Shown here piece after piece: positions 41,510-42,431 of a DNA stretch of 64,000 nt. A model generated the notes under the pieces. The model worked only from the letters and a program-made list of their open reading frames with translations, was not told the DNA's origin and searched no databases. A program made the translations under genes and the position numbers. Source of the stretch: Eledone cirrhosa (lineage: Eukaryota); NCBI GenBank assembly GCA_964016885.1, contig OZ024746.1:85622001-85686000 (forward strand). Direction: 5' to 3'. Numbering within the stretch: the first letter of the stretch is position 1; each line of letters opens with the position of its first letter.

Positions 41510-41855
41510 GGAACGAGTAGGACCCCGACGGCTGAGCTTAAGCCATTTCGACAGCTAATTCTGGACTAATTCTGGAGTCCAGAATTAGCCGTCGAAACGG
41601 CTTGAGCTCAGCCGTCGGGGTCCTACTCGTTCCTATTACCCACTCTACTACCCTAAGTATTGAGTACTTTGGTGCGTTATGGTCCACCTGGTTCCTTACC
41701 ACATTTCCTTCGTTATATATATATATATAGATGTAAATATAATGTATTTTGCAATACACTTTATGCTTAATTAAAAGCATTTTGAAGACCGTAAGCTATT
41801 GTTTTAAAGTAGTGACAAATTCACTCACTTCGATCTCAGCAAACAGGAGGAGATA

Positions 41856-41899
41856 AGCCGACATGACATGTTTCGCTTTTGTTGAAGCTTATCAAGGCC
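41856..41899 (-). ncRNA. Type I hammerhead variant with U3-A8 core, family H (left arm)
   Basis: Reverse complement of 42192-42235. Confidence 0.8.
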
Positions 41900-42191
41900 A
41901 ACTACCCCGCCCGTCTGCTGAGATCAATGATGTTATATTCTTATAGAAATCTAGTAAATAATCAGGAGCTGATTATGCAGAGCGGTTGTTGGTCAGGCAG
42001 AAATTAAAAATTAGAATTGTAGCTCTGAAATAGCAATATATATATGGATGTAAATATAATGTATTTTGCAATAATTCTAATTTTTAATTTCTGCCTGACC
42101 AACAACCGCTCTGCATAATCAGCTCCTGATTATTTACTAGATTTCTATAAGAATATAACATCATTGATCTCAGCAGACGGGCGGGGTAGTT

Positions 42192-42235
42192 GGCCTTGAT
42201 AAGCTTCAACAAAAGCGAAACATGTCATGTCGGCT
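42192..42235 (+). ncRNA. Type I hammerhead variant with U3-A8 core, family H (right arm)
   Basis: GGCC-UUGAUAA-GCUU-CAACAA-AAGC-GAAAC-AUGUCAU-GUC-GGCU; stem I extended by GAUCUCAGCAGACGG / CUGUUUGCUGAGAUC. Confidence 0.8.
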
Positions 42236-42391
42236 TATCTCCTCCTGTTTGCTGAGATCGAAGTGAGTGAATTTGTCACTACTTTAAAACAATAGCTTAC
42301 GGTCTTCAAAATGCTTTTAATTAAGCATAAAGTGTATTGCAAAATACATTATATTTACATCCATATATATATTGCTATTTCAGAGCTACAA

Positions 42392-42431
<40 letters not shown>

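Follow-up and report, generated by a model that had tools for sequence, protein, structure and literature searches.

The locus at positions 41510–42431 of the window (the whole 64,000-nt stretch of Eledone cirrhosa DNA that we analysed) carries a 317-nt hammerhead ribozyme unit twice in inverted orientation, and is the ordinary insertion form of its family and no one-off. To judge from its sequence, the family is an animal non-LTR retrozyme of the Penelope-like element (PLE) type, young and protein-free. We propose, with a probability of about 0.55, that it inserts when a Penelope-like enzyme cuts a TA microsatellite and the same, probably circular, RNA is copied from both DNA ends.

Both arms of the locus run into (TA)n at their 3' ends and abut with their 5' ends at 42073. 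They are identical across the whole overlap, the sole difference being the contact of the minus arm with (TA)n at 41729. Most of what the initial annotation had read from the letters held on closer analysis, i.e. two inverted arms with a period of 317 nt (redundancy of 27 nt at 41730/42047 and of 9 nt at 42073/42390) that begin at different points of the unit (c263 in the minus arm, c1 in the plus arm) and had looked identical by eye, one hammerhead with a long stem I in each, and no sizeable open reading frame. Read round the circle, the unit has no stop-free frame longer than 46 codons, so that no protein is encoded. The G+C content is low (111/317, 35%), and the RT and GIY-YIG ORF of an autonomous PLE is absent from the unit, such ORFs existing elsewhere in the genome. 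Two of the earlier readings fell. The supposed head-to-tail junction shared by the arms, ATATATATAT, lies inside the unit, at the place where type-A arms end, and is no monomer junction; and, instead of a template switch in (TA)n, the arms share a 5'-5' joint at 42073 and have (TA)n at their outer 3' ends.

Features of the locus, in window positions. Unit coordinates (c) refer to the 317-nt circle, with c1 at window position 42073.
Feature	Position	Strand	Description
Left (TA)n run	41714–41729	none	Putative priming end of the minus arm (from sequence)
Arm A	41730–42073	-	344 nt, unit c263 round to c289; 3' end at site A, without tail
Hammerhead of arm A, type I	41832–41925	-	Predicted cleavage after 41860 (minus strand); mapped, identical to that of arm B
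5'-5' joint of the arms	42073–42073	none	1-nt overlap
Arm B	42073–42398	+	326 nt, unit c1 round to c9; 3' end at site B, with tail
Hammerhead of arm B, type I	42166–42259	+	Long stem I; core TTGATAA at 42196–42202 (U3-A8); GAAA at 42217–42220; predicted cleavage after 42231
37-nt tail	42362–42398	+	Between site A (c289–300, internal (AT)5) and site B (c9)
Right (TA)n run	42399–42429	none	Putative priming end of the plus arm
Neighbouring 204-nt repeat, other family	41510–41713	+	124-nt hairpin and 80-nt one-sided extension; shares the left (TA)n; outside the retrozyme

The neighbouring repeat belongs to a second (TA)n-bounded family, with copies at 41510–41713, 29386–29589, about 13655–13814 and 46771–46861 of the window. 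It combines a 124-nt hairpin and an 80-nt extension with an apparent 3' half of a hammerhead, and may be a fixed hairpin element because two window copies match in length and centre (96% alike). Five inverted segments of other families, also bounded by (TA)n, lie at 23653–24258, 34487–34691, 34981–35466, 35667–35843 and 49628–49994, with one-sided extensions of 25–102 nt. The window further contains a 30-nt minisatellite (16883–17634, 25 copies, 97% matches), a 1.85-kb (TGTA)n run (31245–33098) and a 120-codon frame on the plus strand (40499–40858) that has no Pfam match and that we take to resemble the C-terminal restriction-like endonuclease of an R4/Dong-type element.

A young retrozyme family and its hammerhead

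A 43-mer from the hammerhead core occurs 470 times in the genome as an exact match. A young clade about 99–100% identical to the window copy (79 A-type ends) bears out the recent activity that had been suspected, and older subfamilies reach down to about 70% identity. We analysed 147 distinct loci, leaving out overlapping sequences, a satellite and the array L090; 118 of them consist of two arms head to head and 29 of a single detectable arm. Of the single-arm loci, at least two (L036, L177) do have a second arm, of 9–12 nt only. In several more the arm passes straight into (TA)n, and others are fused to the inverted ends of other families. Arms reach up to 13 units, and 43 of 225 have at least two. 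Consecutive complete hammerheads (at least two), by which Li et al. 2026 define an 'active' retrozyme (bioRxiv 10.64898/2026.07.22.740005), thus occur in the family, the window arms holding one each.

The identification as a retrozyme stands, given the type I hammerhead, the 317-nt tandem unit and the lack of an ORF. The insertions moreover show the features of the PLE type, namely 5' truncation, an inverted 5' copy, a tail of 30–40 bp and a (TA)n target. A MITE or TIR DNA transposon was rejected, as the tail makes the two ends unequal and the joint varies from locus to locus.

One satellite of an older subfamily (L051–L053, G000:C2:207.686-207.712 Mb) gave at least 84 blast matches in at least about 25 kb, with units of 316/304 nt and higher-order repeats. 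Older relatives with ~67–85% identity occur at L022, L024, L035, L038, L112, L150, L180 and L215, some of them with the canonical C3-G8 core. The block of the tail region is the most conserved part in older relatives and a candidate protein-binding signal.

Stems I–III and the core of the hammerhead are present in the unit, with predicted cleavage after c159 at a GUC site, and the hammerhead region folds with z = -7.2 (vs 200 shuffles); the unit has no Rfam match at the gathering score. Its U3-A8 core form is known from PLE hammerheads (PMC4209133). Across 15 relatives 95% of cells are paired (31–41% in slid controls) and 10 pairs are altered on both sides, one C3-G8 copy included; these relatives were hand-picked for diversity and are mutually related, so the 95% is not to be read as a probability. 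The minimum-energy fold differs from the catalytic fold (-47.6 vs -42.3 kcal/mol). Four arms stop exactly at c160, against an expectation of 0.72 (nominal P = 0.006); microhomology blurs this figure, and it is no more than a weak hint that part of the templates had been cut.

Two fixed 3' ends, one per arm

The ends of the copies were mapped on the 317-nt circle. The 5' ends are scattered round the unit, with no strong peak and no pile-up at a common start, and the 3' ends map to two fixed sites about 37 nt apart, A (c288–300, the exact position of the ends being masked by the internal (AT)5) or B (c9 in 83/106; otherwise c6–16 or c316). Counted over the genome, there are 592 A-type and 461 B-type (c9) ends. 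The different permutation of the two arms, which the initial annotation had taken to imply a circular or multimeric template, is by itself no evidence for a circle, because two fixed 3' starts and scattered 5' truncation yield it.

The two sites are used in a strikingly regular way. Among the classifiable two-arm loci 106/108 pair one A end with one B end (AB), with a single AA (L158) and a single BB locus (L010), the latter within a bigger inverted duplication that takes in 591 nt of flanking sequence. Ten of the 118 two-arm loci were not classed for end type; 18 loci had been preselected as AB pairs, which leaves 88 of the 106 without preselection, and L061 and L062 are possibly one event duplicated. 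Two open-ended loci were resolved as AB, and three further AB loci were found, one of them outside clean (TA)n. In an unbiased count on contig C1 up to 383.5 Mb, with all listed ends included (100 A, 60 B), 30/30 head-to-head pairs were AB, for which P is about 1e-10 under independent ends. Among other (TA)n-bounded inverted segments, 59/67 have a one-sided extension of at least 20 nt, a pattern that supports the rule weakly, since fixed hairpin elements may be among them.

An improbable alternative is that both arms start at one site and that the tail becomes one-sided through later endonuclease resolution or trimming. Craig et al. do ascribe the tail to endonuclease-mediated resolution (PMC8557442), and the (AT)5 of site A is a possible place for a cut or for recombination with the (TA)n flank. 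However, random loss after insertion predicts AA and BB loci, of which we saw 2/108, and two start sites bounding the tail have been mapped in vitro (PMC11167929); trimming would possibly fit if it were coupled and obligatory and confined to exactly one arm.

The joints between the arms show 0–5 nt of overlap in 84/118 loci and inserts of 4–31 nt in 21/118, many of the latter copied from nearby sequence. Arm haplotypes match in 44/45 informative young loci (20,000 permutations gave a mean of 16 and a maximum of 29), marker cells agree between arms in 357/395 cases over all subfamilies, and arm lengths are weakly correlated (rho 0.27, P = 0.006). A fold-back copy would be nested, and 43/106 AB pairs, the window locus included, are not. 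Most likely, then, the two arms were copied separately, with one RNA or one common source as their template. Folding back and self-copying of one cDNA, twin priming of the L1 type and an assembly artefact could each call on the identity of the arms at the window locus, yet we give them next to no credence. The non-nested pairs contradict fold-back and twin priming; the 5' ends of B arms are scattered and not adjacent to site A; more than 100 loci have differing joints and flanks; and the family is present in an independent sequencing run (1153 contigs). No public contig among those listed spans the exact window joint, which is evidence neither way.

A second RNA can take part, since L002, L006 and L166 each hold two haplotypes within one locus and, the single arm of the hybrids L042, L049 and L063 continues into the inverted 3' end of a PLE or of a different hammerhead-like family.

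The template and its putative Penelope-like partner

The cleavage site is crossed by 188/236 arms in 318 passages, none of them with an indel within 2 nt. The proposal of a template longer than one unit is thereby supported, and linear cleaved monomers are rejected as the only template. Variants that are rare in the family carry the argument further. Thirty-one of them are common to both arms of a locus, 22 filling all copies and 9 being mixed along the arms. On the young background 246G occurs at L034 only, in 4/4 copies and on both arms; 62A is fixed likewise at L197; 247G fills 9/9 and 10/10 copies at two loci; and all four units of L217 carry 183G and 267A. The 94A clade was listed completely (99 exact matches in 28 loci, all analysed) and 105/106 of its copies carry 94A; 43G is fixed there in 4/4 copies at L179 only, and the 28 loci contain no satellite master array. 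It is these variant patterns across loci that make a circle likely, and that the main template was a monomer, circular or closed, we consider somewhat better than an even bet.

The same two-ended priming might instead read an uncut linear multimer transcribed from a tandem locus, which we regard as rather unlikely. Multimer templates are possible given the mixed variants (9/31). The circle is further opposed by the strictly single-locus variants covered at least three times, which divide into 6 mixed and 3 uniform, by the mixed loci L038, L059, L065 and L169, where the two arms begin in different units, and by the duplicated three-unit block of L225; nor did a one-unit source turn up for any fixed variant. 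The patterns at L114, L119, L125 and L126 fit both arms reading a heterogeneous multimer from the same unit, and the longest arms, of up to 13 units, are possible sources; at L010 and L047 the unit is linked to PLE coding sequence. Hammerhead cleavage is not needed in vitro either, the anole PLE having used uncut RNA (PMC11167929). Against this, each of 14 distinct fixed young variants requires a uniform source array of its own, and for 246G, 62A and 43G none was seen in this assembly, where such arrays could be missing; the sole large satellite is of an older subfamily with 12-nt-deleted units that are unseen in 12 older-subfamily loci, and the 5' ends do not pile up at a common start. A 347-nt contig of the 94A type (317+30, depth 2.7, in one sequencing run) fits a circle or tandem DNA alike; its length is what a closed cycle gives, and we have not counted it as evidence.

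It is very improbable that arms and units came from unrelated RNAs and were homogenised later, once inserted, by gene conversion and unequal exchange. Arrays do change after insertion, as the duplication of a three-unit block in L225 shows; periodic patterns in L109 and L119 and five loci with one variant copy per arm also point that way. Yet 302 rare variants in single copy against 31 shared indicate that conversion is slow, and it leaves unexplained both the AB rule and the 44/45 haplotype matches in very young loci.

A further pattern concerns the kind of change that becomes fixed. A-to-G changes (RNA sense) make up 6/14 variants fixed across a young locus vs 17/155 single-copy changes (P = 0.005); set against T-to-C alone the ratio is 6 to 1 (P = 0.125, not significant). 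The excess may reflect RNA editing fixed into DNA.

The genome is rich in PLE ORFs that end in a GIY-YIG domain and contain the CxCx5C linker, a mark of the Hydra clade (PMC8557442), some of them open over ~750 codons. A profile of 32 natural copies, run on 0.97 Mb, placed no unit directly 3' of a PLE endonuclease, and an autonomous PLE with the unit as terminal repeat was not found in that sequence. At L047 (1718-3673) a unit arm passes at c174, in sense, into the RT-endonuclease region of a Hydra-like PLE, a junction that suggests a switch between two RNAs; the second copy adjoins an assembly gap. The Hydra-like PLE concerned has many genome copies, and its 3' region has no visible likeness to the unit in the sequence compared. 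Three ORF pieces gave no Pfam match. L203 and L204 are head-to-head insertions of the autonomous Hydra-like PLE, whose arms by eye share locus-specific letters.

In the mechanism that we propose, a PLE protein supplied in trans would cut both strands of (TA)n. One DNA 3' end would start reverse transcription at site A (c288–300, (AU)5 in the RNA) and the other at site B (c6–16), each cDNA would stop at random, often after one or several passages of the cleavage site, and the cDNA ends would be joined via 0–5 nt of microhomology or short templated inserts, by analogy through the microhomology-mediated end joining of the host. The template, the least certain step, would mostly be a single monomer, circular or nicked yet kept closed, that is read repeatedly. 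The more specific version, in which the two ends of one break prime on a single circular RNA, each strand at its own fixed site, and synthesis then rolls on around the circle, with editing as a part that may apply, is tentative and we put it a little short of even odds. If true, it would account in one step for three traits of PLEs and retrozymes, namely their tandem arrays, the inverted copy and the tail on one side.

Relation to known retrozymes and Penelope-like elements

During L1 twin priming, both ends of the target serve as primers on one RNA, which leaves a 5'-5' joint with microhomology. The two parts are there non-overlapping on the RNA, whereas the arms of the 317-nt family overlap fully and both start at fixed sites.

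Closer relatives are the animal non-LTR retrozymes as described in PMC7229834 (Cervera and de la Pena 2020) and bioRxiv 10.64898/2026.07.22.740005, with which the family shares a tandem unit within 150–450 nt, the type I hammerhead, low GC, the lack of an ORF and the range from monomer to satellite. Mobilisation by PLEs through circles has been proposed there, as have tandem cDNAs from circles (PMC7229834). Circles have been shown to form in animal retrozymes, whereas the 317-nt family is known from DNA alone. The family also has head-to-head double insertions with paired ends, while the terms 'inverted' and 'head-to-head' have no matches in the available text of PMC7229834.

The insertions of EN+ PLEs (Craig et al. 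2021, PMC8557442) are likewise 5'-truncated, carry an inverted 5'-truncated copy and target (TA)n. Their tail of 30–40 bp is often found at one end only; in the 317-nt family it measures 37 nt and sits almost always on exactly one arm. Unlike these elements, the family has no RT or endonuclease ORF. The hammerheads of PLEs (Cervera and de la Pena 2014, PMC4209133) show the same core covariation as the 317-nt unit and are described as paired, 100–700 bp apart and on opposite strands, and more-than-unit copying of circles was proposed for them. They are minimal motifs without helix III, whereas in the 317-nt unit helix III spans 4 bp and stem I is long.

The link between retrozymes and PLEs, the circles, the inverted 5'-truncated copies, the one-end tail and the (TA)n targets were thus already known (PMC7229834, PMC8557442). 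In the passages of the retrozyme and PLE literature searched (including PMC13282606 and PMC8969392) we did not find the rule of one start site per arm, nor template variants common to arms and tandem units; Fig. S9 of PMC7229834, Figs. S1-S2 of PMC11167929 and older Penelope papers may bear on both. The origin of the tandem and inverted PLE copies and of the tail is called unresolved in passages of PMC8557442 and PMC11167929, and rolling-circle copying of retrozymes is worded as a proposal in PMC7229834 and PMC4209133. The valuable part of the present work is the family-wide pattern, because it makes an open mechanism directly testable; the family yields countable predictions, i.e. that each strand has its own start site, that each event uses a single template and that variants are fixed round the circle. 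For annotators, such palindromes in TA-rich genomes would be retro-insertions and not MITEs.

A biochemical counterpart is the Poseidon PLE of Anolis, studied in vitro (Frangieh et al. 2024, PMC11167929), where both strands of AT-rich targets are cut and extended, as proposed here for the 317-nt family. Its protein is a predicted dimer, and its two internal start sites bound the tail much as sites A and B do. No difference in start site between strands was found with Poseidon, and one event using both sites is not proposed in the main text. Site A of the 317-nt family can, unlike Poseidon, pair with the target through (AU)5, and a 317-nt RNA with a (TA)n target makes a small in vitro test system.
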